From the NCBI GenBank assembly GCA_963724725.1, contig CAVRVT010000001.1:93874-157873 (forward strand): a stretch of DNA of 64,000 nt, read 5' to 3'. Source of the DNA: an uncultured Acidobacteriota bacterium. Its GTDB lineage: Bacteria > Acidobacteriota > Vicinamibacteria > Vicinamibacterales > CAVVIG01. The position numbers and the translations under genes are program-made. The first letter of the stretch is position 1. The number at the start of each line of letters is the position of its first letter. The notes below the pieces were generated by a model. It was not told the DNA's origin, searched no databases, and saw only the letters and a list, made by a program, of their open reading frames with translations. Below are positions 2,985-22,558 of this stretch, one piece after another.

Positions 2985-3013
2985 GGCGAAGTATCGTACC
3001 CCTGTCGGCCGTC

Positions 3014-3595
3014 TTGCCTCACAATACGAACATGATGAACACTCCACGGCTTCCTCGTCGTTCACAGGCCGCATACCGTTTCGCCTCTGCATTCGTCCTG
3101 GGGCTTTCAATGGTCGCCGCCGGAGTATCCGGCCCCAGAGGGGCCAACGGTACCGTCTCGGCCCAGACGGTGAACCCGTGCGCGCTGCTGACGAACGACG
3201 ACGTTCAGCCGCTCGCGGCGAAGGCGAGCGTCGCCGACGGTGTCGCGAGCTCGCTCCCCGCCTTCGGTTCCGCTACCTGTCGATATACGTGGGGTGTCGG
3301 CGCCGACCGCTTCAAACTCGACGTGATCGTCAATGAGGCGTCCCGGATGTTCCCCGGCATGAGTCCGGAGCAGATCAAGCAGCGACTCCAGGGGGCAGTC
3401 AGAGTGGGGACGGCTGATGCGATCATCTCAGATGTTGGCGAAGCCGCTGTGTTCAAGTCCGACTCGCCGCTTTACGCCAATGCGGCCTCATTCCTAAAGG
3501 GCCGGATCCTGGAGGTCCACCTCGACGGATTCGTCGCGCGCGAGAGGAAGGATCAAGTCATTGGACTGCTGAAGTCGGCTGCGTCGCGGCTCTAG
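3014..3595 (+). CDS. Secreted hypothetical protein
   Basis: 193-aa ORF with N-terminal hydrophobic signal-like segment. No family recognised. Confidence 0.4.
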   Translation: MPHNTNMMNTPRLPRRSQAAYRFASAFVLGLSMVAAGVSGPRGANGTVSAQTVNPCALLTNDDVQPLAAKASVADGVASSLPAFGSATCRYTWGVGADRFKLDVIVNEASRMFPGMSPEQIKQRLQGAVRVGTADAIISDVGEAAVFKSDSPLYANAASFLKGRILEVHLDGFVARERKDQVIGLLKSAASRL

Positions 3596-6096
3596 ACCTT
3601 GGAACACGTCGAACGGATCTCCAGGCGCCCGCCTGAGCTGATCTGGACGGCGACATCACCGATCCAGCACGCGCCAGCGGTCATCTTGCCGAGCACGGCG
3701 TACGAGCAGCCATCTTCAGCCGTGAGCGGCAGGCAGACTCTCACGCGCTCGCGGCTGCGGACCGCGACCGTCGTACTGCTTGAACAGATCACCGCGTCGG
3801 GTTCCCGCGCAGGCTTTCGATGGACGCGGAATTCGATCGCCGCGTCGCCGGAGTCGGACCAGGTTTCCAGATTCACCGTGACTGTGCGCGCCGCGCCGCC
3901 CAGCCACACGTAGCCGCTATGAAACAGCGTGCGTTCCCCGCCTCGCGCGAGCAGGCGGGGAATTCCGCGGGCAGGACGGCGCTCGCCGAACAGACCGAAC
4001 GGATCGAGATTCAGTTGCGCGTTTTCGACGAAGGCCCTCCAGAGCCGCACTCCTTGCTCGATGAACCGCCGTGCATGTTCGAGATCCGTCATTGGCAGCA
4101 CGCCGATCGAGGCAGCCGACGCAGGTTTCTTCAGAACAAGGCTCAGGGAACAGAAAGGCAGACCGCTCGTGAGTAGCTGCACGTGCGGTGCTGACCTCAG
4201 AAGCGTGTCCGTTACCGCATCCGCGGGATCGGCGCACAGATCGCCCAGGCGTTCCGGCAAAGGCCGGTTGAGGACGTGGGGCGACACCGCTCCGTCCACT
4301 GCACTGAGCGTCACGAACGAGGCGGCGCCTACCAGCTCGTGCAGAAAGGTTGACGAGAAATAGTAGTTCCCCGGTGTCGGAATGACTTCTTCGCCGAAGT
4401 GGAACTCCGTCGTCAGCACGTAGACCCCGTCATCCTTCAAGACCCGCCGGACTTCGCGAAGGTGCTCGAGAAAGTCGTCGTACTTCCCGATGTGCTCCAT
4501 CGCGCACGACGAGTAACAGAAATCGAACGATGCGTCCTCGAACTCGAGCGCGCGCATGTCCATCCTCTTGACGGTCAGGCGAGACGGATCGATCGCGAAG
4601 GGTGCCACGGCTCTGAGTGTGCAATCTGGATTGTCGGTTCGCGCGCCGTCCCAGGCGCTGCCGGATTCGTACAGGTCGGTCACCGTCAAATGCCCGACGC
4701 GACGAGCGACGGCATACAACAGCCGCTCTTCTCCTCCTCCCATGGAGAGCCCGCGAGTCTTCGCATTCAGGAATCCGAGTGCTTGCAATGCCCTGAAGAT
4801 CTGAGCGAACTCCCACTGCTTCCGATGGAAGCGGGGCTCTTCCTCGAGCTCGTACCGGATGATCCGATCGAACTCGGGATCGAACCAGTCCGTCACGTCG
4901 CACAGCTTGCTGAGGGACCTCACGAGAGCACATCGGCTTCCATTCGGCCGTCGCGTCCGCTCGCGGGAGCCGCTCGGCCCTTCAGATCGAGGCGCGCGAC
5001 GCAATCGAAGACGCGCCAGGTGCGCGCGAGCGGAGGCCTCCCAGTCAGGGCACTGATGCGAGCGCGTCCCGCGCTCGACGAGGTCACGGGCCAGATCGGG
5101 ATGCCTGAGCACGCGGAGCAGCGCATCGGCAATCAATCGCGGTTGCCGCGGGTCCACATAAACGGCAGCGTCGCCGCAGACCTCCGGCAGCGCTCCGGTG
5201 TGCGCGCTGACGACGGGGCAACCACGCGCCATTGCCTCCAGCGGAGCGAACCCGAAGCCTTCGTACAGCGATGGAGACACGAGCACCGAAGCTCGATCGA
5301 GCAGCGCGATCTTCTCGGCTTCGCTGACCGGTCCGAGGACAGTGACTCGGCCGAGCGATCCGTAATCCGCGCCGATCGTGCCCAGATCGACTTGTGACCC
5401 CTCGCCGGCAATGACCAGGCGCACGTCGATCACCCGTTCGATCGTCCGGAACGCCGCGAGCAGTGCCGGCAGATTCTTCGTGGGGTCTGCCCGGCCGATC
5501 CAGAGGATGTACCGGTCGCGATGCTTGTCGGGCTTTGCGCGCTTCGACAGCGGCACCGGGCTGCCGTGACGGATGACGTGCACGCGGGCACTCTCAATGC
5601 CGTAGTACCGGCACACGTCATCCTTGGTCGCCCGAGACGGCGTGACCACGGCGTGCGCACGCCTCAGCGCCCGTCCGAGGTAGTGCCGGTAGAAGTGGTA
5701 CTGCCGCGGGTGCGCACTTCGAAAGAGCCACGGGATCATGTCGTGCACTGTGACAATGCCGCGCCCTCCGGTGATCGGTGCCTCCAGTTGACTGAGACCG
5801 AAGACGAGCGCGTCCCGGTGTTGCCGGGCGAGGTGATTGGCAAAAAGCCATCGGCGCAGGTTTCCGGTCGTTCCACGCGTGGGAGACATCCGTGCGCTGA
5901 CCCACCGGATCGCAGCCCCGGTCGGAATCTCCGATTCCGGAAAGAACTGGCGCGCCTCTTCGTTGAGGACGACCGTCAGCGGCCGATCGACCCGGGCGCC
6001 CCATAGCGCCTTCACCAGGTTGACGCCGTACACGGCGATACCGTCCACGCGCTGGCCGATAGCCGTGGCATTCACGATGAGCGGGCGATCCAGCAT
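3592..6096 (-). CDS. Multidomain glycan-modifying enzyme: GT4 glycosyltransferase + class I SAM methyltransferase + unknown C-terminal domain (about 835 aa)
   Basis: GT4 core 'ILWIGRADPTKN...YEGFGFAPLEAMARGCPVV'. The methyltransferase core 'LSMGGGEERLLY...DASFDFCYSSCAMEHIG...LKDDGVYVLTTEF' follows. Start ATG at 6096 abuts the Wzt stop at 6098. Confidence 0.7.
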   Translation of the reverse strand: MLDRPLIVNATAIGQRVDGIAVYGVNLVKALWGARVDRPLTVVLNEEARQFFPESEIPTGAAIRWVSARMSPTRGTTGNLRRWLFANHLARQHRDALVFGLSQLEAPITGGRGIVTVHDMIPWLFRSAHPRQYHFYRHYLGRALRRAHAVVTPSRATKDDVCRYYGIESARVHVIRHGSPVPLSKRAKPDKHRDRYILWIGRADPTKNLPALLAAFRTIERVIDVRLVIAGEGSQVDLGTIGADYGSLGRVTVLGPVSEAEKIALLDRASVLVSPSLYEGFGFAPLEAMARGCPVVSAHTGALPEVCGDAAVYVDPRQPRLIADALLRVLRHPDLARDLVERGTRSHQCPDWEASARAHLARLRLRRAPRSEGPSGSRERTRRPNGSRCALVRSLSKLCDVTDWFDPEFDRIIRYELEEEPRFHRKQWEFAQIFRALQALGFLNAKTRGLSMGGGEERLLYAVARRVGHLTVTDLYESGSAWDGARTDNPDCTLRAVAPFAIDPSRLTVKRMDMRALEFEDASFDFCYSSCAMEHIGKYDDFLEHLREVRRVLKDDGVYVLTTEFHFGEEVIPTPGNYYFSSTFLHELVGAASFVTLSAVDGAVSPHVLNRPLPERLGDLCADPADAVTDTLLRSAPHVQLLTSGLPFCSLSLVLKKPASAASIGVLPMTDLEHARRFIEQGVRLWRAFVENAQLNLDPFGLFGERRPARGIPRLLARGGERTLFHSGYVWLGGAARTVTVNLETWSDSGDAAIEFRVHRKPAREPDAVICSSSTTVAVRSRERVRVCLPLTAEDGCSYAVLGKMTAGACWIGDVAVQISSGGRLEIRSTCSKV

Positions 6097-6097
6097 G

Positions 6098-6865
6098 TCA
6101 GCCACGGAAAACCCCGCGCCCCTCGCGATAGGCGCCCGCGACCTCCGCAGGGTCACCGTCCATGACGAGGCGGCCGGAATCGAGCCAGACCAGGCGGTCG
6201 CATTGTGTCTGGAGGAACTCGAGGTCGTGCGAAACGAACACCGACGTGACCCCATCAGCCACGAGCGCATGGATACGCGCGAGACATTTCTCCGTGAAGA
6301 ACTCGTCGCCGACGCCGAAAATCTCGTCGACCAGCAAAACATCGGGTTTCACATCGAAGGCGAGCGCGAAGGCGAGACGCGCATACATGCCCGATGAGTA
6401 ATGCTTCACCGGTTCGTCGATGAACCCGTCGATTTCGGCGAACCGGACGATGTCGTCGAGTCGCGCCTCGATGCGTGCGGGAGTCACGCCGAGCAGCGTA
6501 CCGGCGAGGATGCAGTTCTCGGCGCCTGACAGATCCGGCTGGAAACCAACTCCGAGTTCGAGCAAGGGAACGATGCGCCGCGCACGATCGATCGTGACCT
6601 GGCCATGCTGCGGCACGATGACCCGTGCGAGGACGCGCAGCAGCGTCGACTTGCCGGCGCCGTTCCGTCCGATGACGCCGAGTCGCTCTCCCTTCGCGAT
6701 CGACAGTGACACGCCGGAAAGCGCTGCGTGCGCCGCACCTGGATACCCGTGCAACCACGAAGCGACGGTGTACTTCAGGCTGCGCGCTTCGACCGCGTTC
6801 CTGCGGAAGCTGACGCTCACGTCTTTCAGGTCGAACACGGTGGCGCCCGGAATCGTCTGCCTCAT
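6098..6865 (-). CDS. wzt: ABC transporter ATP-binding protein, Wzt/TagH-type (short form, no C-terminal carbohydrate-binding domain)
   Basis: Walker A GRNGAGKST, signature YSSGMYARLAFA, Walker B LLVDE, H-loop SHD. Overlaps the upstream ABC-2 permease gene. Confidence 0.8.
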   Translation of the reverse strand: MRQTIPGATVFDLKDVSVSFRRNAVEARSLKYTVASWLHGYPGAAHAALSGVSLSIAKGERLGVIGRNGAGKSTLLRVLARVIVPQHGQVTIDRARRIVPLLELGVGFQPDLSGAENCILAGTLLGVTPARIEARLDDIVRFAEIDGFIDEPVKHYSSGMYARLAFALAFDVKPDVLLVDEIFGVGDEFFTEKCLARIHALVADGVTSVFVSHDLEFLQTQCDRLVWLDSGRLVMDGDPAEVAGAYREGRGVFRG

Positions 6866-7674
6866 AAATAGAAATACAGACGTGAGCGCGTCCAGCGCAC
6901 CGACGCCACGCCGAGCGCCAAGGCAACCGCGGCGGTTGCCGACGACACCGCCCAGTCCATCAGCGCGGGCCACCGGCCCGCATAGACCGGCTTCTGAAAG
7001 AGCGCCGCGAGATACGTGAGCGGATGCCATGCCAGCAACCGTGCGTGTGCCGAACCCGACGGGAACAGATCCGGATTGAACAGGATCGGCGCGGTGAAGA
7101 ACGCGAGCATGAGCGCGATCTGGACGACCGGGCGGACGTCACGGAAGAAGGTGAAGAGAGTGGCGCAGCACAGGCCCACTCCCAGGGCGGCGACCGCCCA
7201 GGGCAGCACCGCAAGCGGCAGGACGGCGACGTGCATCGTCCAGTGGTCCTTCACGAATGCCAGAATCAGCGCGACCGCCGCGAACGAGAACGCGAACTCG
7301 ACCGACGCGACGATCCATCGGGCGAGCGGGAGCGAGAAAGGTGAAGCCGGCAGCTTCTTCAGCAGCCAGTCGCCTTGCACGATCGCATCGGTGCAGCCGG
7401 ATACGACCTTCTCGAAATACCGCCAGGGCACCAGAGCACTGAACAGGAACACCGCGTAGTCGCTCATGCGCATCCGATTGACGTACGAGAACACCACGCT
7501 CAACACGCCGAGATACAAGAGCGGCTCGAGCAGGTTCCAGATCACGCCAAGTGCGGTATAGCGGTACTTCAGCCGCAGCTGACTCTTGGCGTAGACCCAT
7601 GTGAAACGCATCGATGCCCGGTCCACCCGCACCACTGGATCCGCCGTCAGCCTGCGACGCGCAGCCCGCGCCAC
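6862..7674 (-). CDS. wzm: ABC-2 type polysaccharide export permease (Wzm/TagG family); start codon uncertain
   Basis: Six predicted TM helices. ABC-2 motif region 'LRLKYRYTALGVIWNLLEPLL'. Translationally coupled to wzt. Confidence 0.75.
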   Translation of the reverse strand: MARAARRRLTADPVVRVDRASMRFTWVYAKSQLRLKYRYTALGVIWNLLEPLLYLGVLSVVFSYVNRMRMSDYAVFLFSALVPWRYFEKVVSGCTDAIVQGDWLLKKLPASPFSLPLARWIVASVEFAFSFAAVALILAFVKDHWTMHVAVLPLAVLPWAVAALGVGLCCATLFTFFRDVRPVVQIALMLAFFTAPILFNPDLFPSGSAHARLLAWHPLTYLAALFQKPVYAGRWPALMDWAVSSATAAVALALGVASVRWTRSRLYFYL

Positions 7675-9722
7675 GCGCTCGCCGCCGATGCGTGTACGCT
7701 GCGGACGACGTCTTCAGGAGCAATCTCGCCGAGACAGGCGCTCGGCCGCAGGCCCGTGAGGCCGCACGCCGTCGCCTCGTTCCGCCAGCACGGAATGCAT
7801 GCCAGCGTCTTGCGTGCATCGAGCATCCTGGCGCGCGGATAGTCCTGGCCGCGGACGCGACCGTCAGTCGGGCCGAACAGACCGACGCACGGCAGATCCA
7901 GAGCGCCTGCAAGATGAAAGAACGCCGAATCCGGCGTCACGAGCACGTCGCAGCCGCTGGCGAGTGCGAAAGACCGCCGCAGGTCCAGCCCCTGGACGGG
8001 AATCACACGGGGATTCTCGATGTCAGCCGGCCGCACGCTGCCAAACACCAGCACCGACGCGTCACGGGCGATCGCGTCGATGATCTCCTTCATGTGTGGC
8101 ACGTCGCGGTAGGCTTCGTCAGTGCGCGTCTGGACGCCGACCACGAACGCCCCGTGGAGCCCGCGATTGCCGAAGAACTGATCCCGCCACACCCGTTCCG
8201 CGTCCGAGACCGTGTAACGCGGACGCCGATCCATCGCCCTCAGCCGTGCGCCCGTGATGCCCAGCGCGCGGGCGAACAGCTCGATGCGGTTCGACCTTAC
8301 GGCGGGCGCCGTCCGGCTTTCGACGCGCGCCGCCGGACAGTCCGTCAGGTTGAGCCACTCTCTATATGCCCCCGGATCGAAGTCGCCGTCGATGTCCAAC
8401 AACCTGACGTCGTCGTTTCCTTCGAATAGCGGGAAGAAACGATGTGGGATGGCGAGGACAACCGGTCGCTCGGCTCGCATGGCTTTCAATGCGCGAAGAC
8501 CGGGCGTCATCATCAGGAAGTCGCCGACGCCGCCCATGGCCCGTGTGACCAGCGTCGCCTCGATCGGTCGCGGCACCGTCGCTCGTCCGCGGGCGGCGTG
8601 CGAGCGAAGCCCGTACTGCCGAACGTATGCGCTGCCGGCAGCGCATTTCTCGAGGAATCGCGCGATGTCCCAGCCGGCGTGCCGCGCGGCGCCCAGGCAC
8701 GTCCAGTAGCTCAGCCAGAGCATCCTGTCCGCCACTGACAGTTCGCGGCTCGCGAGCAGGCGCGGCATCCCCCGGTGCGCCCGCCGCATGAGATCCACCA
8801 CCGCCCGGCGTTCGTCGGCGTCGGTGTGGAATACGCGCAGGCGCTCGACGAGGAGGCGTTTGAAGAGCGACGCGCGCCGCGTCTGGAGCGACACTGTGCC
8901 GAGCGCATCGAAAAGCGCCGGGATGGCGTTTCGATCCGCGATCCGATCGAGGCGGCGTGACGCAGCGAGCAGCGTCGCGTACGCCGCCTCCAGGTCTCCG
9001 AGGAGCGCGTGCGCACGAGACATGCGGAGTCGAACCCAGGGCGCGATCTCGGGAAACGCGTTCACGCCCAGCGTCAGAGCCAGATTGCAGGTGTCGTTCG
9101 CATCCGTGAAACGCGAGGCACGCAGCAGTTCATCCGACCAGTCGAGTAGGGTTCGAAACAGCTCCCGCGGAAAAGCGCTCCGGCTGCGGCAATCGGACAC
9201 GAATGTCTGGACGACTGATTCGAGGAACTCGTGTTCCCGGCGCAACTCACCCGCGGCGCTGCCTGTGAGCGCGTGCGCTCGAGCGAGGCCGCCCAGCACT
9301 ACTTGACGCAAGACCTCCGGATCGGTGTGGCGCGCACGCTCGGCCGGTGTCAGCGTTTCGAAGAGGGCCCGGACGTGCTCGGCGTGACCGTGAAACGCGA
9401 GAACGTGGAGATGTTCTGCGGTCGGGCGCACACCGAACAGTTGAGACGGAAGACGGTTCGAACGAGCCGGACTGCCGATGGACGCTGGTTCGATCACGGT
9501 CGCTCCGAGACGACTCGTGAGACGACGCTCGAGCGTCGGGCCGGCGCGGCGGCAATCCGACAGAACGTAATTGTCGCCGACGATATTCGAAATACCTGGA
9601 CGTCGATATGAAGCCGCGCCAGGTCCGTGGCGGCGTAATTCAGAACAAATCGGTTCACAGACACGCTCCGGGTTCTCCAGCGCGTGCGTGCGAGGCAAGC
9701 TTCGTACCCGAGGAGTCGGCAA
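7647..9722 (-). CDS. Glycosyltransferase family 9 (heptosyltransferase-like) with about 350-aa N-terminal helical extension; start uncertain
   Basis: C-terminal half carries GT9 motifs 'TRAMGGVGDFLMMTPGLRALK', 'CDVLVTPDSAFFHLAGALDLPCVGLFGPTD' and 'ACIPCW'. Confidence 0.6.
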   Translation of the reverse strand: MPTPRVRSLPRTHALENPERVCEPICSELRRHGPGAASYRRPGISNIVGDNYVLSDCRRAGPTLERRLTSRLGATVIEPASIGSPARSNRLPSQLFGVRPTAEHLHVLAFHGHAEHVRALFETLTPAERARHTDPEVLRQVVLGGLARAHALTGSAAGELRREHEFLESVVQTFVSDCRSRSAFPRELFRTLLDWSDELLRASRFTDANDTCNLALTLGVNAFPEIAPWVRLRMSRAHALLGDLEAAYATLLAASRRLDRIADRNAIPALFDALGTVSLQTRRASLFKRLLVERLRVFHTDADERRAVVDLMRRAHRGMPRLLASRELSVADRMLWLSYWTCLGAARHAGWDIARFLEKCAAGSAYVRQYGLRSHAARGRATVPRPIEATLVTRAMGGVGDFLMMTPGLRALKAMRAERPVVLAIPHRFFPLFEGNDDVRLLDIDGDFDPGAYREWLNLTDCPAARVESRTAPAVRSNRIELFARALGITGARLRAMDRRPRYTVSDAERVWRDQFFGNRGLHGAFVVGVQTRTDEAYRDVPHMKEIIDAIARDASVLVFGSVRPADIENPRVIPVQGLDLRRSFALASGCDVLVTPDSAFFHLAGALDLPCVGLFGPTDGRVRGQDYPRARMLDARKTLACIPCWRNEATACGLTGLRPSACLGEIAPEDVVRSVHASAASAWRGLRVAG

Positions 9723-10095
9723 CGAATCGCGAGATGTTGGATCGAGGCGCCGGATTTCCGGCGCATCGTGATGGCGCAGCCGCTGCGCGAGTTCAGTATT
9801 TTGGAACAGCGCCGCTAACTGGGAAGCTGACTGGCAACCATGACGTTCACGATGAAGCGCGCGTAGCTCGCGAGCGCCCAGCTCCGGCGGCCGACGAGCA
9901 GCTCGTCACAGCTCCGGTGAGCTGCAGGCCCACAACCCGTCGGCGGCATCGCTTGGTCGCATCCCCTGCGCAGGTGGCCCTCACGAGCGTCACCGGCCAA
10001 TCCGCGTTCGCGAATGGCGCGCACCAGCCCGGCTTTGCCGCCGAACGCTACTCGGACCTTTCGCTGACTTCGCCCTCGGAAGTACTCAGACACCG

Positions 10096-10593
10096 TTACA
10101 ACCATCGTCGGACCCGCGCCCGGTATTGGTCGTAAGCCCTCCCAAACCGACGCGCGAGAAACGCTTCCTCCCTCAACACCACGCCGTAGTGCGTCAGCGC
10201 CACGACCGCCGGCAGCAACGCGAGCGACCACAGCTTGCCCAGCACCAGGGCGAGGCCCGCGTACGCGATCGAGCCGAAGAGATACATGGGATTCCTGGTG
10301 ACGCGGAACGGACCGCTGTCGACCAGGACAACCGGGGTCGCCGCGTTATGAATAGGCGTTCCGACCTTCTTCATCGTGGCCACCATCCAGGCGAACCCTG
10401 CCGCGCCAAGACAGAAAAGAATGCCGCCAAGAGCCCGCGCGCCAACGTGGAGCGGGCCGGAGATCCAGGGAGACGTCGGCCACATCGCCTCCAGTAAGAC
10501 ACCGAGGAGAAATCCGGTCAGGGGGATCAGGGGCGGGAAGACCACTACTTGAGAGTGCTCGAGTGCCGGAGGGCCCGTTTGCTGGTCCACCAT
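10096..10593 (-). CDS. Isoprenylcysteine carboxyl methyltransferase (ICMT)/phospholipid methyltransferase family membrane protein
   Basis: C-terminal 'VTRNPMYLFGSIAYAGLALVLG...EEAFLARRFGRAYDQYRARVRRWL', typical of the ICMT/PEMT family. ATG at 10593 lies within a conserved leader motif with RBS GGAGAC. Confidence 0.65.
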   Translation of the reverse strand: MVDQQTGPPALEHSQVVVFPPLIPLTGFLLGVLLEAMWPTSPWISGPLHVGARALGGILFCLGAAGFAWMVATMKKVGTPIHNAATPVVLVDSGPFRVTRNPMYLFGSIAYAGLALVLGKLWSLALLPAVVALTHYGVVLREEAFLARRFGRAYDQYRARVRRWL

Positions 10594-10642
10594 TCTGGTC
10601 TCCTGAATCATAGAGGTACTTGAGGTATGCCCGGCGCGCACT
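10584..10642 (-). promoter_or_regulatory. Conserved about 58-nt leader element, copy A, overlapping RBS and start of the ICMT-like gene
   Basis: Plus strand ggtccaccattctggtctcctgaatcatagaggtacttgaggtatgcccggcgcgcact is about 80% identical to 15128-15183. Confidence 0.5.
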
Positions 10643-10985
10643 CAGTGATGCTCGTACGGCGTCGCCCTCGGCAGTCGATCCGAGAGCTTCCAGGCAAAGA
10701 ACGCATCCGCGCTTCGTTCGCTCCACATGCGGATCACCGTCGATTCCGGCGACGATTTCGTCTTCGTCGAACCAGTCGGGCCGTCCGGCGCTGATGTCCG
10801 CGTGCGGGCAGTGCGCGTGTCATCCACGAGCGAGTACCTGCCGTATTCCGCTGGTGCAAGCCGTCGAACGGGTGCTGCCAAGGACGACCGTCGCATCGAT
10901 TGCGAAGATACCGGTGTGCTCCATGACTCCCGAGCGAGTCGAGCGAGCGCTCAAGGCGGCGCCGGATTCGTCCGCGCGCTCGCTT

Positions 10986-12137
10986 TCAACGCGCGCTTGG
11001 GTGAAGGCGCTGTCCTTGACAGCCGGGGCCTGAAAGGCCAAGGCCCGGCCCGGTCAGCATCGGGTACGCGGCCACATCGAGCACGCCGCCAGCGCCGAAC
11101 ATCAACGGAGGCTCACAGACATCGCGCGCGAGCAGAAACGTTCCAAACGCCCCTTCCTGCGCGACCAGCGCGCCGCCGGCAGCCCGGGCGACGGGTAGCG
11201 CCGCGCGTGTGAGGATGCTCGTCTCGCCCACCTGGGCGCCGACAATCACGCCAATGCCGGCGGCTCGTGCGGCATCGACGACCTCCAGCGAACGTATGAT
11301 GCCGCCCATCTTCGACACGCGCAGGTTGATCAGCCATTGGGACCGTGGGCCTGGAAGTCGTGACACCTGCTCGCGCCGCACGCAGCTCTCGTCCAGGATC
11401 ACCGGGCAGTTCAGCGCGCGCGAGAGGTCGGACAGTTCTGCGTACCGGTCCCTGCCGATCGGCTCTTCGACCGCGAAGAACTCATGGCCAAGCTGCTGCA
11501 GGGCGGTCCGGGCTTCTGCTCCGCTTCCCCAGACGTTGTTGGCATCCGCCCGAACACGGGCCGAGGCCGCCGGCCATTGCTCGCAGACGGTCAACTTCTC
11601 TCGATCGCGTTCGTGGTCTCCGGACAGCTTGACCTTGAAATCTCTGAAGCCGAACGACCAGTACCGTTCGGCCATCCCGTGGAACGCGCCCGGTGAGGCG
11701 TCCCCCAGAACAGCCGTGTAGTGAAAATTGCCGGCGAGCGCCGGCAGCGACAAGAGCGATTCAACGGTTGCACCGCTGGATCGGCCGAAGAGATCGAGCA
11801 GCGCCAGCTCGAGCGCGCACCACGCCGCCGGATGGCGATCGATTTCGCCTCGGTGCGAAATCACCCACGCGCGAAGCGATTCGACGTCGTCGATCTCTCG
11901 ACAGATCGTGGCCCGGTGCTGCTCGAGGAACGTTCGCGCCGAATCGACGGTTTCTCCGGTGACGTACGCGCGCGGGCACGATTCGCCGCGGCCCGCCGTC
12001 CCATCGGCCGCCAGGGCTTCGACCAGCACCGTCTCGGTTTCGGCCCGCTCGGCGGACGCGTGGCGGAATGCCGCTTTGAAGGGAATCCGGAGCTCGGTGA
12101 ACTGGAGCCGCTCGACGCGAACGCTAGCCGACGGCAT
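10986..12137 (-). CDS. Enolase-superfamily enzyme (mandelate racemase/muconate lactonising enzyme family; N-acyl amino acid racemase or dipeptide epimerase-like)
   Basis: 383-aa ORF with MR/MLE fold features: 'FKVKLSGD', 'VRADANNVW', 'ILDESC' and metal-ligand region 'EEPIGRDRYAELSDL'. Confidence 0.6.
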   Translation of the reverse strand: MPSASVRVERLQFTELRIPFKAAFRHASAERAETETVLVEALAADGTAGRGESCPRAYVTGETVDSARTFLEQHRATICREIDDVESLRAWVISHRGEIDRHPAAWCALELALLDLFGRSSGATVESLLSLPALAGNFHYTAVLGDASPGAFHGMAERYWSFGFRDFKVKLSGDHERDREKLTVCEQWPAASARVRADANNVWGSGAEARTALQQLGHEFFAVEEPIGRDRYAELSDLSRALNCPVILDESCVRREQVSRLPGPRSQWLINLRVSKMGGIIRSLEVVDAARAAGIGVIVGAQVGETSILTRAALPVARAAGGALVAQEGAFGTFLLARDVCEPPLMFGAGGVLDVAAYPMLTGPGLGLSGPGCQGQRLHPSAR

Positions 12138-13767
12138 ACCGCTCGAGGGGCAACGCCAGTTGCCGTTTGTACTGGAGGACGACCGGCTTGAACTGCCCCT
12201 CGCGCTGCCCGGCCCGCACGCAGGCGATCTTGTAAGCCTCTCCTGCTCCCGACTTGAGCCACGTGATCGTCAAAGGCGCGAGCCGGCCGCTCGCGCGCTT
12301 GCTGTGGTATTCGATGTTCAATTCCCCGAGGCGCTCGTCAACAGCCGCCGCGAGCTCCGCGGATGCGTGTGTCGGCGCGTCGTCTTCGAGGAAGAGGCTG
12401 TACAGCGAACGCTCCTCGTCCGCGACGAGCATGAAGAACGGAGCCGCGAGACGGTAGCGTCGAGCGGCGCCCTGAACGGCCTCGATGACCTGTGCCTCGT
12501 ACAGTTTTTCTCCTGTGAGGTTGGTGACGCCCCTGCCCTTCTGAACGAACCGAAGGAGCGGCGTCTCCCGGAAACGGCCCGTCACCTCGACGATGTCGTT
12601 CATGAAATAACGGTAGAGGCCCGCGGCAGTCGTCACGATGACGTAGTACCGCCTTCCGTCCACGAGGGCTTCGAGCCCTGCGCAGTCGCGCCGGCCGTTG
12701 TCCCAGTCATCCTGCTCGACGAACTCGAAGAAGGAATGATGAAGCGGCGGCAGGCCGGATGGCGTCTCCACGTCGAGCGCGATCGTGCCGCGGCATTCGG
12801 TGGACTGATATCCGAGCTCCATCACTTTCGTGCCCGCCGGCAGCGTCTGACGAAGCTTCTGAAGCGCGATCCCGCAGCTTCCGCCGGTCCACGTCGTGAC
12901 GAGCCTGATCTGGGGCCAGAGGTCCGCGAAAGTGAGCCTTGCGGTGCTGCGCAACTCCGACGCGCGCGAGCGGTCGGCCCTGACGTGATCCATCACGATC
13001 GTCCGCGTCTCGACGTCGAGCGCCTCGATCTCCGGGAACGATCCCGTCTCGAGGGAGCGCGCCAGGACGTCTCTCCGCTCGTTCAAGACGTCGAGCAGCC
13101 GCACGAACGTCGAGGGATTCGGAGATCCCAGATACGTGATGTTCCGGAAGGCCAGCGCGAGCCGGAGTATCACCAGGTACTTGGTGTCGTAGTCGGCGAT
13201 CGCCGACACCTTCGGCGGCAGCACGAATCGCGATCGCAGCGCCGACGGAAGCGACTCGTACAGATGCCCGGACACGGACCCGACGGTGTGCCCGGAGTCG
13301 AGGCGGCCTTCGACCGCAGACCCCATGATGCCGAGCGCCTTGCCCGAAAACGCCTCGGGACACGCGCGGTACTGCAGGTAGGTGAACAAGGCCTGCTCGG
13401 CGCGATGAATGCGCAAGGCACTTGGCGAAATGGGAATGTATTTGGGCTTGCCGGTCGAGCCGCTCGTCTGGGCGTAGAACACCGGGGCTTCCGTCGTCAG
13501 CGACGCCGCGCCGGTGCATCGCTGCCGCTCGATGTGAGCGCGCAGTGCGTCGTAGTCCTGAACCGGCACGCGCGCGCGGTAGTCGTCGGCCGATTTGATG
13601 CCGGCGAAGTTGTGCTCGGTTCCGAACTCCGTGTGCCGATTGGCACCGAGGATGTGGCGAAGGGCCTGGGCCTGGGCGACGTCAGGCCGCTCGGCGTGCC
13701 GGGCGACGGGCGCCCAGTACCGGACGGCGCACGCGAGCATCCCGCCGCGCAGCGCCCACGCCCGCAT
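12124..13767 (-). CDS. GH3-family acyl-acid amido synthetase-like adenylating enzyme
   Basis: GH3 signatures 'LRHILGANRHTEFG' and 'YAQTSGSTGKPKYIP' in a protein of about 547 aa. Start overlaps the stop of the hydroxylase gene (TAATG). Confidence 0.7.
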   Translation of the reverse strand: MRAWALRGGMLACAVRYWAPVARHAERPDVAQAQALRHILGANRHTEFGTEHNFAGIKSADDYRARVPVQDYDALRAHIERQRCTGAASLTTEAPVFYAQTSGSTGKPKYIPISPSALRIHRAEQALFTYLQYRACPEAFSGKALGIMGSAVEGRLDSGHTVGSVSGHLYESLPSALRSRFVLPPKVSAIADYDTKYLVILRLALAFRNITYLGSPNPSTFVRLLDVLNERRDVLARSLETGSFPEIEALDVETRTIVMDHVRADRSRASELRSTARLTFADLWPQIRLVTTWTGGSCGIALQKLRQTLPAGTKVMELGYQSTECRGTIALDVETPSGLPPLHHSFFEFVEQDDWDNGRRDCAGLEALVDGRRYYVIVTTAAGLYRYFMNDIVEVTGRFRETPLLRFVQKGRGVTNLTGEKLYEAQVIEAVQGAARRYRLAAPFFMLVADEERSLYSLFLEDDAPTHASAELAAAVDERLGELNIEYHSKRASGRLAPLTITWLKSGAGEAYKIACVRAGQREGQFKPVVLQYKRQLALPLERYAVG

Positions 13768-14633
13768 TACCGGCTGAAGGGAGCGCGCATCAGCGCCCAG
13801 AAGGACTTCGGATAGGCGGGGTCCTGCAGTCCGAGCGCCTGCACGGCGCGCTCCGTCGGCAGGAACCAGGTTCCGAACACGAGGTCCCAGATGATCACGG
13901 TGTTGCCGTAGTTCGCGTTGGACTCGCGAGGGACCCTCGAGTGGTGCCATCGATGGGTTTCAGCGCTTCCGACGATGTAGTTGAGAACGCCGTAGCGGAT
14001 GTCGATGTTGCAATGCTGGAAGAATCCGTTCGACGCGTACGCGATGTAGTAGAGCGAGAGCACCGTCGGATCGACCGCCATCAACACGAACGGCACGCTA
14101 TCGAGCATCATCTGCAGGACTTTTTCGAGCAGGTGAAATCGCGCCGTATTCAGCCAGTACAACTGCTCCACCGAATGGTGGACGGAATGCAGGCGCCACA
14201 GCGTGTCGCTCTCGTGCGACGCGCGATGCAGCCAGTACCGGAGGAAGTCAACGACCAGAACCATCAGCACCGCCTGGAGCCAGATGGGCCAGGCATGGGG
14301 CCACAGCGCCGCGATGGGCAGGTTGAGCGCCCGCGCCGGCTTAATTAGTGCGTACGCGAACACGAAACCCACGAGCGGCGGGAATGCGAGCTGCACGGCA
14401 GTCATGAACTCGAGATCGGTTTTGACCTCGCTGACCGGCGGACGCCAGTCGCCTCGATATGGGAACCTCCACTCGAGCGCCATCACCAGCATCGCTGCGA
14501 GGACGACCGGCACGTACGTGCTGACAACGAGCGGCACGCCGAGACCGCGCATCAGCGCGAAAACGACGAATGTCGTGATCATCACGGCGGGATAGTGCAG
14601 GAACGGTAACCACGCCGCGCGTTCCGCTGGCAT
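13767..14633 (-). CDS. Fatty acid hydroxylase/sterol desaturase superfamily membrane enzyme
   Basis: Histidine boxes 'HRASHESD', 'HSVHHS' and 'HRWHHS'. Multiple TM helices. Confidence 0.7.
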   Translation of the reverse strand: MPAERAAWLPFLHYPAVMITTFVVFALMRGLGVPLVVSTYVPVVLAAMLVMALEWRFPYRGDWRPPVSEVKTDLEFMTAVQLAFPPLVGFVFAYALIKPARALNLPIAALWPHAWPIWLQAVLMVLVVDFLRYWLHRASHESDTLWRLHSVHHSVEQLYWLNTARFHLLEKVLQMMLDSVPFVLMAVDPTVLSLYYIAYASNGFFQHCNIDIRYGVLNYIVGSAETHRWHHSRVPRESNANYGNTVIIWDLVFGTWFLPTERAVQALGLQDPAYPKSFWALMRAPFSR

Positions 14634-14641
14634 ACCGACCT

Positions 14642-15088
14642 TTATCGGACGGAGGATCGCGCGGCCCCAAGGCTCCAGTGGAAATGCCCGTACACCAGCA
14701 CCCAGCCGGCAAGAACGAGATGGAACATCGTCGGGACCGGGCTGGCAAACCAGCGCGATTGACTGAGGATAGTCAGGCCGAGGACGAGCCGCGCCAGCAT
14801 GCTCACGAAATACACGCCCCCGAAAGCCAGCGCGGCCACGCCAACCGCGTGTCGTGGCCTGACCGCTCCAATACTGAAGCGATAGTTCGTCCAGCCCATG
14901 GCGACGAGAATCATCAGCTGCAAGGCGAGCAACACACCGTAGGGAAGGGTCGCGCTGTGCCAGGACTCGAACGCCGGCAGGCCGGTGTTGACGACCAGCG
15001 AGAGCGGCTGCGCGACAACGCGAAAGGCAAAGAGACCGAACAGCAGCCATCCAGCGATGGCATGACGATCCGAAGGGACGGTTCGCAT
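14642..15088 (-). CDS. Integral membrane protein (148 aa, 4 TM), first gene of the minus-strand cluster
   Basis: Hydrophobic ORF with ATG at 15088, directly upstream of the hydroxylase gene. Confidence 0.5.
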   Translation of the reverse strand: MRTVPSDRHAIAGWLLFGLFAFRVVAQPLSLVVNTGLPAFESWHSATLPYGVLLALQLMILVAMGWTNYRFSIGAVRPRHAVGVAALAFGGVYFVSMLARLVLGLTILSQSRWFASPVPTMFHLVLAGWVLVYGHFHWSLGAARSSVR

Positions 15089-15127
15089 CCGAGATCGTTA
15101 TCGGGCGTGCCGGAGCGTCCGTTTACG

Positions 15128-15183
15128 GGTCCACCGTTCTGGTCTCCCGCATCGCAGGTGTCGAGGTGTCCCCGGCGCGCACT
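15128..15183 (-). promoter_or_regulatory. Conserved about 58-nt leader element, copy B, in the divergent intergenic region
   Basis: ggtccaccgttctggtctcccgcatcgcaggtgtcgaggtgtccccggcgcgcact lies 40-95 nt upstream of the membrane-protein start and overlaps the 5' side of the divergent creatininase-family gene. Confidence 0.5.
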
Positions 15184-15237
15184 AGAATGAGCGCGCGAAC
15201 ACATCACGGACTGGGGATCGACGTGCGTATTGCCGAC

Positions 15238-15927
15238 ATGAACTGGATGCAGGTCGAGGAATATCTGCGGCACGACGACCGGGCGGTGTTGCCGCTCGGC
15301 AGCACGGAGCAGCACAGCCATCTGCGGCTCACGGTCGATTGCATCCTCCCCGAACGTGTGGCGGCCGACGCCGCCGAGCCCCTCGGCGTGCCGGTGTTTC
15401 CAGTGATGCCGTACGGCGTCACGCCGTACTTCCGCGAGTTTCCCGGCTCGATCTCGCTGCGGGTCGAGACGCATCTGCGCGTCGTGGGCGACATCCTGGG
15501 CGGGATGGCCCACAGCGGATTTCGCCGCATCCTGATCGTCAACGGACACGGCGGCAACAGCGCCGTGCAGCAGTTCGCGCTCGAATGGGCCGCCGATCAT
15601 CCTGGTTGCCGGGTGCTCTTCCACAATTGGTGGAACGCGCCGCGCACGTGGGCCAAGGTGCAGGAGATCGATCCGGTGGCATCACACGGCTCGTGGATCG
15701 AAAACTTCCCGTGGACGCGCCTCCCCGGGGTGAGCATGCCGGGCACCGGGCGCCCGATGGTTGACATGGCGCGGGTGCGCGCCCTCGATCCGGTCGCGCT
15801 GCGTCAGTATCTCGGCGACGGCAACTTCGGTGGGATGTATCAGCGCTCGGATGATGAGATGCTCGCGCTGTGGCAGATCGCCGTGGACGAGACACGCGCG
15901 CTGCTGACGGGCTCGTGGGGCGACTGA
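15238..15927 (+). CDS. Creatininase-family amidohydrolase (creatinine amidohydrolase/MftE-like); start may be upstream at 15187 or 15166
   Basis: 'LPLGSTEQHSHLRLTVD', 'ILIVNGHGGN' and 'HGSWIEN' motifs of the creatininase family. Confidence 0.65.
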   Translation: MNWMQVEEYLRHDDRAVLPLGSTEQHSHLRLTVDCILPERVAADAAEPLGVPVFPVMPYGVTPYFREFPGSISLRVETHLRVVGDILGGMAHSGFRRILIVNGHGGNSAVQQFALEWAADHPGCRVLFHNWWNAPRTWAKVQEIDPVASHGSWIENFPWTRLPGVSMPGTGRPMVDMARVRALDPVALRQYLGDGNFGGMYQRSDDEMLALWQIAVDETRALLTGSWGD

Positions 15928-20595: not shown

Positions 20596-21891
20596 TCAAG
20601 AAGCAGATCGGAGCGCTCGGACAACGAGGCCAGCGACCGGTGCGCCAGCCTCCATGCGCAAGTCGGCGGCCGCAATCTCGAACTGCAGCTGGACCTCGGC
20701 GAGCAGCCGTTCGACGTACGCGCGGGCGTGGCTGTAGCGGCCGTGCAGTTCTAAACGGTAGTTGACGCCTTCCTGGCTTCCACCCGCGTGCTCGAGCGTG
20801 AACACGAACGCGCCGCCCGCCCGCAGCGCGCCCGCGGCGGCTGTGACGACAGGTTCGAGATCGCCGAAATAGACGAGCGCGTCGGCCGACACGATCAGGT
20901 CGAAGGCGTCAGGATTGTTGCGCAGGTACTCGGTCAACTCGACCCTCAGCAGCGAGTCGTAGGCGGTCTTCGCTTTCGCATGCACCAGCATCCCTTCGGA
21001 CAGATCGACCCCGGTCAATCGACGCGCGTACGGCGCAAGCAGGGGGCCGCACAACCCGGTGCCGCAGCCGGCGTCGAGCACATCGAGGCGCTTCGACGGC
21101 TCCAATCCCAGATCCTGCACCGTCGCTGACACCAACGCCGGCGCGCGGTACGACAGCCTTTGAAGTTTCGCTTCAAAGCTCGCGGCAAAGCCGTCGAAGG
21201 TCTTTTCGACGAATCCGTCTGATGCGCGCGCTGGAACGTCGCGGCCAGTGCAGGCCGCAAGCATGTGACGCGGGATCGGATCGTCGGGCTCCTCTTCGCA
21301 CCATTTTTCAAAAATCTTGACGGCCTCGCGGACTTCGCCGAGCGCGCAGTGTGCCAGCGCTAGCAGTTTTCGTGCGTCGCGGTGCTTCGGCCTGAGCGTG
21401 ATCACCTTGCAGAAGCAGGCCGCCGCTTCCTCCGTTCGGTTTGTCCCATTCAGCAGGATGCCGAAGTTGGTGTACGCGTCGATGTGCCCGGGGTTCGCCT
21501 GAATCGCCTTGCGATACGCCTCCTCCGCCTCCGACGGCCGGCCGGTTGCCCTCAGCAGAACGCCGAGATTGCTGTAGGCGTTGGCGTGGCACGGGTCCAG
21601 GTCGATCGCGCGACGATAGGCGGCAATGGCGGCATCCCACTTGCCCTCCGACTGAAAGACGATGCCGAGGTTGCTGTAGCAGTCCGCTCGATCGGGAGCG
21701 AGCGCGAGGCTCTGCTCGATGAGTTGGACCGCTTCGTCATTTCGTCCCTGCTGATGTGCGAGTACGCCGGCATAGTGCAACGCATCGGGATGGTTGGGAA
21801 CCGTTTCCAGCACGCGACGGAACACCTCATGCGCCTCGGCCAGCTGGTCGCCCCGCTGCAGATGGATCGCGACGGCGACCGCCTCGTCCAC
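20596..21891 (-). CDS. TPR-repeat protein fused to a class I SAM-dependent methyltransferase
   Basis: Five or more TPR units (AYSNLG, AYTNFG), then 'LDAGCGTGLCG' SAM-binding motif. GTG start at 21891 is inferred. Confidence 0.6.
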   Translation of the reverse strand: MDEAVAVAIHLQRGDQLAEAHEVFRRVLETVPNHPDALHYAGVLAHQQGRNDEAVQLIEQSLALAPDRADCYSNLGIVFQSEGKWDAAIAAYRRAIDLDPCHANAYSNLGVLLRATGRPSEAEEAYRKAIQANPGHIDAYTNFGILLNGTNRTEEAAACFCKVITLRPKHRDARKLLALAHCALGEVREAVKIFEKWCEEEPDDPIPRHMLAACTGRDVPARASDGFVEKTFDGFAASFEAKLQRLSYRAPALVSATVQDLGLEPSKRLDVLDAGCGTGLCGPLLAPYARRLTGVDLSEGMLVHAKAKTAYDSLLRVELTEYLRNNPDAFDLIVSADALVYFGDLEPVVTAAAGALRAGGAFVFTLEHAGGSQEGVNYRLELHGRYSHARAYVERLLAEVQLQFEIAAADLRMEAGAPVAGLVVRALRSAS

Positions 21892-21940
21892 CGTCAGCTC
21901 GCGCGTCGACGTGTCAGACGGCAGCGGCGCCTGCAAGACG

Positions 21941-22420
21941 TCAACCGATCTTGTTGGCAAGGAGGTCGTACTTGAAGAACACGGCCGCATCCGGCGAGCC
22001 GTCCGCCTTCTGCGGGAAGTACTCGACGTCGACCTTCGCGAACGCGAGGCTCACGGTCTCGGCGTACGGCTGATCGTTGGCGCCGGCGTGCGTGACCGAC
22101 GTAATGATGATGTCGTTCATCTTGACGACAAGGAACTCGTGCGGGCTCTTGCCCGCTTTGCGGTGTGTGATGGTCGCGTCCTTCAGGTGCGTCCCGGTCG
22201 CGCACGCCTGCAGGAGAAGCGGGGATGCTCTGTCGATGGTGTGAACTATCGCGAGATCCTTGAACGTCGCCTTCCCGGCGCCTCCGCCGCCGCCGGTCGG
22301 GCTCGAGCTCGTGCTCGACACGCCCCAAGAAAACGACAGAACCTCGATCTCGTCCTTGTGTTTCGCGTCAAGCGATTCGCCCTTGATATCTCCGATCTTG
22401 GCGAAAATGTCTGTGGCCAT
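21941..22420 (-). CDS. hcp: Type VI secretion system tube protein Hcp (orphan copy)
   Basis: 'MATDIFAKIGDIKGESLDAKHKDEIEVLSFSWGVS...GGGGGAGK...VDVEYFPQKADGS' closely matches the Hcp1 family consensus. Confidence 0.85.
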   Translation of the reverse strand: MATDIFAKIGDIKGESLDAKHKDEIEVLSFSWGVSSTSSSPTGGGGGAGKATFKDLAIVHTIDRASPLLLQACATGTHLKDATITHRKAGKSPHEFLVVKMNDIIITSVTHAGANDQPYAETVSLAFAKVDVEYFPQKADGSPDAAVFFKYDLLANKIG

Positions 22421-22558
22421 CTGATCGCTCCTGCGTCGCTCACCGTCGGACAGCAATCGAAGAATAGATGCCTGGTGCCCCGGAGACTATGCGATTTCGG
22501 CACCTCGACCTGGGTGACCTGCCACCTCAGCTGCAGTGACGGGATTCTGCCGAAACCG

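Follow-up and report, generated by a model that had tools for sequence, protein, structure and literature searches.

The window, by which we mean the whole stretch of 64,000 nucleotides analysed here, from an uncultured Acidobacteriota bacterium, carries a four-gene cassette in which a GH3-family amido synthetase (GH3) lies between a membrane di-iron hydroxylase (FAH) and an enolase-superfamily enzyme (ENO) and is accompanied by a small membrane protein (TM4). From the sequence features described below, the cassette would make a hydroxylated and possibly C-alpha-epimerised N-acyl amino acid (lipoamino acid) in association with the membrane, a reading in which we place roughly even confidence. 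The route is probably a relative of the GH3-dependent ornithine-lipid pathway that was reported in 2025, but not the same one. We found no description in the literature of a cassette combining GH3, enolase and hydroxylase, and neither the enolase partner nor TM4 figures in any described aminolipid pathway.

Layout of the locus

The genes and the intergenic region considered here are as follows:
14642-15088, minus strand: TM4, 148 aa, orphan four-helix membrane protein; cassette gene 1
13767-14633, minus strand: FAH, 288 aa, OlsE-like membrane di-iron hydroxylase of the FA_hydroxylase superfamily
12124-13767, minus strand: GH3, 547 aa, putative GH3-family ATP-dependent acyl-acid amido synthetase, assigned by domains and motifs
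10986-12137, minus strand: ENO, 383 aa, enolase superfamily, MLE subgroup; predicted N-acyl-amino-acid C-alpha epimerase
10096-10593, minus strand: PEMT/ICMT-fold membrane methyltransferase; adjoins the cassette here, membership doubtful
15089-15237, no strand: divergent intergenic region, 149 bp; presumed from its position to be the cassette promoter region

All five co-oriented minus-strand genes of the initial annotation are present in the ORF list of the window, and profile-HMM searches of Pfam and NCBIfam upheld their family assignments (PF04116, GH3 domains, MR_MLE_C and PEMT). The 608-aa GH3 ORF (12124-13950) and a 427-aa hydroxylase ORF (13767-15050) are maximal ORFs rather than true gene lengths. 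GH3 starts at the ATG at 13767, which gives a protein of 547 aa identical to database protein P0001, and FAH starts at the ATG at 14633, 8 nt past the TM4 stop. The stop/start overlap described earlier for the hydroxylase and GH3 genes was confirmed as TAATG, a 1-nt overlap, and the 3' end of GH3 overlaps ENO by 14 nt. The methyltransferase ORF (10096-10641) has a probable start at the ATG at 10593, preceded by AGGAG, and is separated from ENO by 392 nt. No gene or RNA was detected in this gap, where the small ORFs have no Pfam match, and in blastn and tblastx comparisons with all related loci neither the gap nor the 149-bp divergent intergenic region gave a match. Scanning positions 9700-15400 for sigma-70 consensus sequences and intrinsic terminators yielded nothing relevant to operon structure that exceeded the expectation from shuffled sequence, and the only Rfam hit within 9500-15500 was to gyrA RNA, at chance level (E=0.68).

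Conservation and natural fusions of the cassette

We compared the window with 80 related loci (40-76% GH3 identity) from about 10 phyla. The taxa represented are Acidobacteriota, Gamma- and Betaproteobacteria, Gemmatimonadota, Bacteroidota/Balneolales, Verrucomicrobiota, Latescibacterota, Fibrobacteria, Chloroflexota and Bdellovibrionota. FAH, GH3 and ENO are colinear in 70 of the 80, and contig ends interrupt the cassette in 8 others; one locus (L082) lacks FAH and another (L054) has a partial ENO. FAH and GH3 form a single ORF in 33 of the 80 loci and GH3 is fused to ENO in L017, L033 and P0227. The last, a database protein of 1207 aa, is by Pfam architecture a triple FAH-GH3-ENO fusion, and another database protein, P0262, joins TM4, FAH and GH3. 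Sequence divergence of the three enzymes is also correlated across loci (r = 0.91-0.97). Because they are colinear, diverge together and are naturally fused, we regard GH3, the hydroxylase and ENO as one functional unit; the fusions and strict synteny tie the GH3 enzymes of the window's clade to a membrane hydroxylase and to ENO.

TM4 was searched for with an HMM built from trimmed sequences that excluded read-through ORFs, and it was not found within 8 kb in 24 of the 80 loci. The protein has no Pfam match and its AF2 model consists of four long helices. That the small 4-TM protein has a conserved role had gone unrecognised in the initial annotation, as had the gene fusions. The flanks of the cassette differ even between relatives with 72-83% GH3 identity, and TM4-FAH-GH3-ENO is best explained as a four-gene module that stands on its own and has been shuffled horizontally. 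The functional unit is smaller than the five genes initially proposed: its core of GH3, hydroxylase and enolase-superfamily enzyme stands, but membership of the methyltransferase is doubtful.

Domain and motif analyses of the cassette enzymes

The predicted catalytic residues of FAH, GH3 and ENO are intact. The GH3, GH3_M and GH3_C domains of Pfam match at 182.2, 62.7 and 46.4 bits, all above the GA of 23.6. Against the NCBIfam OlsH equivalog (NF052613) the window GH3 scores 99.5 bits, under the cut-off of 620, in an alignment limited to the N-terminal ~200 residues; fused homologues score 73-111 bits. The closest PDB structures are those of plant GH3.8 and GH3.15 (about 1e-19). Three nucleotide-binding motifs (T101SGSTGKPK109, G319YQSTE324 and G383LYRYFMND391) are kept in 76 orthologues; those of AtGH3.11 are SSGTSxGxxK, YGSSE and GLYRYRLGD (PMC12493201). 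The window exemplifies a large clade, to which a part of the 1221 50%-identity clusters with matches at E<=1e-30 belongs; fusion-length proteins account for about a fifth of the best 150. The view in the initial annotation that bacterial GH3 proteins lack a characterised role is outdated, since OlsH of Singulisphaera acidiphila is a bacterial GH3 that makes N-acyl-ornithine in an OlsH-OlsG-OlsI pathway (PMC12493201, JBC 2025).

FAH matches Pfam PF04116 (FA_hydroxylase) at 101.9 bits (GA 31; 4.7e-29) and carries the histidine boxes HX3H, HX2HH and HX2HH of the superfamily. Its eight-His motif (H136x3H140, H149x2H152H153, H207, H227x2H230H231) is kept in 70 orthologues. The sole NCBIfam model that it matches is the OlsE equivalog (NF052566), full-length (280 of 293 model positions), at 181.6 bits against a cut-off of 475. 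A sequence search of the PDB with FAH returned no match.

ENO has both the barrel and capping domains of the enolase superfamily and matches Pfam MR_MLE_C at 95.5 bits (5e-27). Residues K168-x-K170, D198, E224/E225, D249-E250 and K276 are invariant across 19-70 orthologues and supply the MLE-subgroup signature (KxK on strand 2, Lys on strand 6 and D/E/D metal ligands on strands 3-5); K168/K170, K276, D198, E224 and D249 align with their equivalents in 3rit, 2p88 and 1jpm. Searched against the PDB, the ENO family profile is led by 2p88 (3.6e-42, 148 bits), a Bacillus cereus N-succinyl-Arg/Lys racemase, followed by 3jva (3e-40) and 1jpm (3e-36). Entries for OSBS and NAAAR reach only 55-67 bits with the same profile, and the window ENO alone gives weak matches (E-values of 2.5e-26 or weaker). 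The best NCBIfam match is DgcA, N-acetyl-D-Glu racemase (100.7 bits), and both it and menC score far under cut-off. Three further motifs (CPRxYVTGE, GAQVGETSxLTRA and AQEGAFG) are invariant in the subfamily. The LDLDG of 3rit and the DFD of 3q45 align, with moderate alignment confidence, to the invariant AQEGAFGT of ENO, which has no Asp pair. In dipeptide epimerases, the DxD at the end of strand 8 reportedly binds the alpha-ammonium group of the substrate. To judge from these sequence comparisons, ENO is a subfamily of its own, nearest to the N-succinyl-amino-acid racemase and the dipeptide epimerases.

Predicted pathway

We infer the chemistry of GH3 from OlsH (PMC12493201) and that of ENO from its nearest structures (by profile, 2p88 and the dipeptide epimerases). 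A lipid substrate is to be expected because FAH belongs to the FA_hydroxylase superfamily and is fused to GH3. Synthesis would take place on the cytoplasmic side of the inner membrane. Like OlsH acting on ornithine, GH3 would there adenylate a lipophilic carboxylic acid in its free form, most probably a fatty acid, and pass the acyl group on to an amino acid at its alpha-amino group. ENO would then take the C-alpha proton of the N-acyl amino acid, beside the free carboxylate, and its two conserved lysines would invert the centre to yield the D-epimer or a D/L mixture. FAH, coupled or fused to GH3, would hydroxylate the head group or the acyl chain, although the order of steps is not fixed and FAH could precede GH3. 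TM4 may serve as a membrane partner, with scaffolding, electron delivery and lipid handling as possible functions. The OlsE and OlsH affinities weakly point to ornithine or lysine as the amino acid. No O-acyltransferase (OlsI- or OlsA-like) is conserved around the related loci and the product may therefore be an N-acyl amino acid with one chain and not a membrane lipid of the acyloxyacyl type. The initial annotation had already proposed an acyl-amino acid that is epimerised and O-methylated. Given the OlsH/OlsE and racemase affinities, a lipoamino acid is indeed the most economical product. In this genome the neighbouring PEMT/ICMT-fold methyltransferase might methylate it, although adjacency is all that links this gene to the cassette.

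Carried further, and more tentatively, the cassette could represent a new lipid class of hydroxylated N-acyl-D-amino acids, made by a hydroxylase-tethered GH3 and the first lipid-acting epimerase of the enolase superfamily together with an obligate TM4 (for example as electron donor or scaffold for the hydroxylase), and spread horizontally among soil, groundwater and marine bacteria of at least ten phyla, most of them uncultured. We consider this extended version possible but on balance doubtful. Bacterial lipid biochemistry has known GH3 enzymes only since OlsH was described in 2025, and the cassette offers a concrete and testable three-enzyme hypothesis for one group of orphan bacterial GH3s. 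If ENO does epimerise a lipoamino acid, it would add a new substrate class to the heavily studied enolase superfamily and indicate that environmental bacteria have D-amino-acid lipids. ATP-dependent synthesis of functionalised N-acyl amino acids, independent of CoA and ACP, would also be of interest for biosurfactants.

Alternative explanations

The three enzymes could be connected in other ways. GH3 could acylate the amino acid, FAH hydroxylate its beta-carbon and ENO dehydrate the product by alpha-proton abstraction and beta-elimination, to give an N-acyl alpha,beta-dehydroamino acid (an enamide lipid). We judge this unlikely, even though it provides a linear dependency for all three strictly co-conserved enzymes and the MLE subgroup includes dehydratases; the NCBIfam models of OSBS and cis-3-hydroxy-L-proline dehydratase match ENO at 60-76 bits. 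The KxK/K/D-E-D residue set is common to both chemistries, and the MLE-subgroup residues do not separate a racemase from a dehydratase or cycloisomerase. However, profile comparison places ENO nearest to characterised racemases and epimerases rather than to dehydratases, and OlsE, the closest hydroxylase model, hydroxylates C4 of ornithine and not C3 (Holzl 2018, as cited in PMC12971839). A rather unlikely variant has FAH acting first, as an ERG25-like oxidase that creates the carboxylate, after which GH3 would conjugate the fatty, isoprenoid- or hopanoid-derived acid to an amino acid for ENO to epimerise. The ERG25-type methyl oxidases, which oxidise a methyl group of a lipid to the carboxylic acid, belong to PF04116; in 33 loci and in P0227 the domains are arranged as FAH-GH3(-ENO), the sequence in which these reactions would run, and fusion to a membrane oxidase fits the channelling of a membrane-bound acid. 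Against it, domain order is an unreliable guide to reaction order, OlsE, the one curated bacterial model with a full-length match, is a simple hydroxylase, and no isoprenoid or hopanoid genes are conserved near the related loci. Plain ornithine-lipid synthesis, with GH3 and FAH isofunctional with OlsH and OlsE and a 4-hydroxy-ornithine lipid as product, appears improbable. OlsH and OlsE are the sole NCBIfam models matched by GH3 and FAH, in the window and in the fused homologues, but scores of only 16-38% of the equivalog cut-offs are too low for substrate identity to be transferred from either. Nor is an OlsI-type alpha/beta hydrolase, the operon partner of OlsH, conserved in the related loci, and described ornithine-lipid pathways have no place for ENO, which is invariably present; the word 'racemase' does not occur in a 2026 review (PMC12971839).

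The neighbours of the cassette bear on two further explanations. The divergent operon does contain the creatininase, M20 and permease genes noted previously and additionally encodes an ApbA/PanE-like reductase and an SDR. None of the 80 related loci has a homologue of PEMT, creatininase, ApbA, SDR, M20 or permease beside the cassette, and these genes are likewise missing where the flanks of the four close relatives (GH3 72-83% identical) are annotated. For this reason, what links the methyltransferase, creatininase, M20 and permease to the cassette is their adjacency in this one genome, and the neighbourhood comparison proposed in the initial annotation bears out FAH-GH3-ENO but neither the methyltransferase nor the divergent operon. 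The original scheme, a single pathway of five minus-strand genes and the divergent amidase/M20/permease operon with O-methylation and amide turnover, is on these grounds quite improbable, despite the adjacency and co-orientation of the genes in the window. The 392-nt gap before the methyltransferase also argues against it. The methyltransferase itself matches PEMT PF04191 at 63 bits (GA 25) and ICMT only weakly, and might methylate the product; it may instead belong to a glycan-export cluster, because GT9-like, ABC-2 permease, ABC ATPase, and GT4 and methyltransferase genes follow downstream. A different methyltransferase of the carboxyl-O-methylating LCM family (PF04072) adjoins the cassette in five distant loci, which favours the original scheme and makes product methylation plausible in some lineages. 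Clustering of the neighbours of the related loci revealed no further partner in >10 loci except a CocE/NonD hydrolase, which accompanies the cassette in 14 of 80 and is missing from the window; the ABC-transporter clusters around these loci are probably generic. This hydrolase, the window's M20 dipeptidase and permease, and the leading matches of ENO to DgcA and 2p88 would suit stereoinversion or salvage of amino acids by acylation, racemisation and deacylation, as in N-succinyl-amino-acid racemase operons and DgcN/DgcA, with GH3 as the acylating enzyme. We regard this as very improbable: no deacylase is conserved across the family, the M20, creatininase and permease of the window are missing from all 80 loci, and amino-acid salvage would have no use for a membrane lipid hydroxylase fused to GH3.

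Comparison with known systems

Several known systems come closest to the proposed lipoamino-acid pathway. The window GH3 shares the three-domain Pfam architecture of the plant enzymes (JAR1, GH3.8, GH3.15 and PBS3), and its motif III, GLYRYFMND, is nearer to the plant GLYRYRLGD than is motif III of OlsH. Unlike the plant proteins, it is bacterial, operonic and coupled to a membrane enzyme, and its matches to PDB structures reach only about 1e-19. OlsH also is a bacterial GH3 encoded in an operon with lipid-modifying enzymes, and its three nucleotide-binding motifs are present in the window GH3. It condenses a free fatty acid and an amino acid to an N-acyl amino acid with ATP/Mg2+, and its authors describe the substrates of thousands of bacterial GH3 homologues outside planctomycetes as unknown (PMC12493201). 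The partners differ: OlsH works with OlsG and with OlsI, an alpha/beta-hydrolase O-acyltransferase of a planctomycete clade, whereas those in the window are an OlsE-like hydroxylase, ENO and an orphan 4-TM protein, and hydroxylase-GH3 fusions are frequent in the window's family.

OlsE of Rhizobium tropici and FAH belong to the same di-iron superfamily, with a full-length match and the His boxes kept. OlsE acts on ornithine lipids that OlsBA has already completed; FAH, in contrast, is translationally coupled or fused to an amide-forming GH3 and falls well short of the OlsE score. ENO retains the KxK, D, E, D and K residues of the N-succinyl/N-acyl-amino-acid racemases and dipeptide epimerases (2p88, 1sja, 2zc8, 1jpm and 3jva), enzymes that invert the C-alpha of an N-acylated amino acid with a free carboxylate. 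It lacks the DxD of the dipeptide epimerases, and a new specificity would be needed for a long-chain N-acyl substrate, yet an N-acyl amino acid with a free carboxylate is both the type of substrate on which these racemases act and the type of product that GH3 enzymes release.

Gene organization of the cassette

The minus strand of the window carries a four-gene cassette (10986-15088) encoding a small four-helix membrane protein (TM4), a di-iron hydroxylase of the FA_hydroxylase family (FAH), a GH3-family protein (GH3) and an MR/MLE enolase-superfamily enzyme (ENO). With the methyltransferase gene that lies beyond ENO, these are the five co-oriented minus-strand ORFs of the initial annotation. 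All five are present, and a profile-HMM check returned Pfam/NCBIfam domain matches that bear out their family assignments.

14642-15088, minus strand: TM4, 148 aa, no family match
13767-15050, minus strand: FAH ORF, FA_hydroxylase
12124-13950, minus strand: GH3 ORF, three GH3 domains, each above the gathering threshold
10986-12137, minus strand: ENO, MR/MLE enolase-superfamily protein by family search
10096-10641, minus strand: PEMT-fold methyltransferase (PF04191, 63 bits), weak ICMT match
3592-9722, minus strand: glycan-assembly/export-like cluster (GT4, ABC ATPase, ABC-2 permease, GT9 segment)
Divergent genes, plus strand: creatininase-family protein, ApbA/PanE-like reductase, SDR, M20 dipeptidase, amino-acid permease

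Read from the sequence, the 288-aa FAH starts at ATG 14633, 8 nt beyond the TM4 stop, and the 547-aa GH3 at ATG 13767, inside a TAATG that overlaps the FAH stop by 1 base. The start of the ENO gene overlaps the 3' end of GH3 by 14 nt. Database proteins identical to the window GH3 (547 aa) and TM4 (148 aa) provide independent gene calls that agree with these models. The likely start of the methyltransferase is ATG 10593, preceded by AGGAG, at a spacing of 392 nt from ENO (10594-10985); this gap contained no convincing ORF, Rfam match or terminator and showed no conservation in related loci.

Conservation and fusion of the cassette proteins

Scanning species-representative genomes with a GH3 alignment yielded 80 loci, all from MAGs and with 40-76% GH3 identity, in the Acidobacteriota (Vicinamibacterales, Bryobacterales), Gamma- and Betaproteobacteria, Gemmatimonadota, Bacteroidota/Balneolales, Verrucomicrobiota, Latescibacterota, Fibrobacteria, Chloroflexota and Bdellovibrionota. 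FAH, GH3 and ENO kept identical order and strand in 70 of them, and contig ends truncated this order in another 8. The sole real exceptions were a Pseudobdellovibrionaceae MAG (L082) with GH3-ENO and no upstream hydroxylase, and a Bryobacterales MAG (L054) whose ENO match was partial (residues 81-344). Identity to the window proteins co-varied over the loci (r = 0.97 for GH3-FAH, 0.91 for GH3-ENO and 0.92 for FAH-ENO). The position of TM4 was more variable: 40 loci had it directly upstream and 6 directly after ENO, a further 5 had it at another place within 8 kb, and 24 lacked it.

The cassette proteins also occur fused. FAH and GH3 form one stop-free ORF of approximately 860-870 aa, with a linker of 16-42 residues, in 33 loci within the range L036-L081 (e.g., L042:7038-9623); GH3 and ENO are joined in two loci, as are TM4, FAH and GH3 in two. 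Candidate cultivable carriers of the cassette are Gracilimonas sediminicola (L078), which likewise has a natural FAH-GH3 fusion, and strains of Methylotenera or Thiobacillus. When 50%-identity cluster representatives were searched exhaustively, 6016 clusters matched at E<=1e-3, of which 1221 reached E<=1e-30; among the best 150, some 31 were 810-905 aa long, their GH3 part beginning at residue ~300-330. Pfam analysis of called proteins confirmed the FA_hydroxylase+GH3 architecture in the database homologues P0213 and P0253 and identified FA_hydroxylase+GH3+MR_MLE in P0227 (1207 aa), whose ENO part is 52% identical to the window ENO. A fourth, P0262 (1017 aa), carries FA_hydroxylase+GH3 behind an N-terminal extension 39% identical to TM4 and is a TM4-FA_hydroxylase-GH3 fusion. 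These fusions are what most strongly indicates that the four products act together on one substrate. They came to light through a TM4 HMM that they had contaminated.

Flanking genes and recurring neighbors

The initial annotation had extended the pathway to the methyltransferase and the divergent operon. The same survey that upheld the FAH-GH3-ENO core argues against this part of the proposal: none of the 80 loci held a homologue of the window methyltransferase, creatininase, ApbA, SDR, M20 (PRK08201 match, 539 bits), permease or GT9-like genes, and relatives with 72-83% identical GH3 have annotated flanks with different genes. The methyltransferase and divergent operon should be dropped from the pathway model unless transcripts tie them to the cassette. 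Downstream of the methyltransferase lie GT9-like, ABC-2, ABC ATPase and GT4 genes that resemble a glycan-export cluster. In this cluster (3592-9722), the GT4 glycosyltransferase is 916 aa long and has a methyltransferase domain as well, and the GT9 (heptosyltransferase-like) segment forms the C-terminal part of a 691-aa protein.

Elsewhere in the window, a Peptidase_S58 (DmpA-type aminopeptidase) gene had a very strong match (1803-3110, minus strand; 387 bits). An apparently isolated gene for the type VI secretion tube protein Hcp (PF05638, 8e-39; 21941-22456, minus strand) adjoins one for a TPR and SAM-methyltransferase protein (20596-21990). Overlapping ORFs at 36046-38827 (plus strand) combine a Ser/Thr protein kinase domain with a long TPR_10/TPR_12 array behind it and may represent a single large kinase-TPR gene with frame ambiguity.

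Clustering of all neighboring ORFs revealed no additional partner in more than 10 loci. A CocE/NonD hydrolase (Peptidase_S15 + PepX_C, ~580 aa), absent from the window, lies beside the cassette in 14/80 loci (including L002:7167-8915, L022, L023, L042-L044, L060, L061, L063, L065, L072, L075 and L076); its N-terminus is signal- or lipobox-like and it frequently adjoins TM4. An LCM-family SAM methyltransferase (PF04072/TIGR00027), unrelated to that of the window, recurs at five of the 80 loci (L046:6085-7005, L069:6158-7060, L070, L057:9241-10167 and L015), which are in different phyla and all without TM4, making product methylation plausible in some lineages. One relative, whose GH3 is 75% identical, has TetR, the membrane O-acyltransferase MBOAT_2, a 142-aa protein and FA_desaturase after the cassette (L084:11088-13769, L085:5448-8234), a stretch that could be a lineage-specific lipid-tailoring extension.

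Predicted activities and proposed pathway

The ENO protein retains the complete MLE-subgroup residue set (K168-x-K170, D198, E224, D249, K276). The best structures by family profile were 2p88, the Bacillus cereus N-succinyl-Arg/Lys racemase, and the dipeptide epimerases 3jva and 1jpm; all three act on an N-acylated amino acid whose carboxylate is free and invert its C-alpha. The position of the ammonium-binding DxD of dipeptide epimerases is occupied in ENO by an invariant AQEGAFG, an arrangement compatible with a predicted substrate lacking a free amine at its N-terminus. TM4 belongs to an orphan family of 90 homologues, all annotated as hypothetical, and had no match in Pfam. A four-helix bundle is predicted for it with confidence (pLDDT 87.4), and the model retrieved no informative neighbor in a structure search; H44, H123 and H137 are among the conserved polar residues.

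GH3 keeps all three nucleotide-binding motifs (TSGSTGKPK, GYQSTE and GLYRYFMND), as defined in PMC12493201. Its nearest solved structures are plant GH3.8 and GH3.15 (~1e-19), and its sole NCBIfam match is the N-acyl-ornithine synthetase OlsH, which scored 99.5 bits where the cut-off is 620. FAH keeps the eight-histidine di-iron motif, and its sole NCBIfam match, over the full length, is the ornithine-lipid hydroxylase OlsE (181.6 bits; cut-off, 475). OlsH (L0DAW6) joins ornithine to free fatty acids in an ATP/Mg2+-dependent reaction that uses neither CoA nor ACP (PMC12493201); OlsE hydroxylates ornithine at C4 (cited in PMC12971839). The most economical reading of these family memberships is that GH3, like OlsH, would attach a lipophilic acid to an amino acid at its alpha-amine, that ENO would then epimerize the C-alpha of this N-acyl amino acid, and that FAH would hydroxylate the head group, on the OlsE pattern, or the acyl chain.

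Other assignments of the same enzymes appear unlikely to differing degrees. ENO could be a dehydratase acting on a beta-hydroxylated FAH product, an unlikely option that we nonetheless rank first among the alternatives; slightly less probable is that FAH serves as a methyl oxidase making the acid that GH3 ligates. Plain ornithine-lipid synthesis of the OlsH/OlsE type is more doubtful still, and acylation-dependent stereoinversion of an amino acid is very improbable. These last two proposals are weakened by the sub-threshold OlsH and OlsE scores, by the unexplained presence of ENO, by the fusion of a membrane hydroxylase to GH3 and because neither a deacylase nor an O-acyltransferase is conserved.

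Comparison with known GH3 systems

The view in the initial annotation that bacterial GH3 proteins have no known role is superseded by the work on OlsH (Rivera-Najera et al., 2025; PMC12493201), which explicitly left GH3 homologues beyond planctomycetes unassigned. The operon in that study is GH3-OlsG-OlsI, whereas the window cassette has other partners. A 2026 aminolipid review (PMC12971839) makes no mention of a racemase, and in our full-text literature search a GH3/enolase/hydroxylase cassette was nowhere described. Thus, with OlsH as the known precedent, we file the cassette as a putative GH3-dependent lipoamino-acid pathway whose partners are different and tightly coupled.
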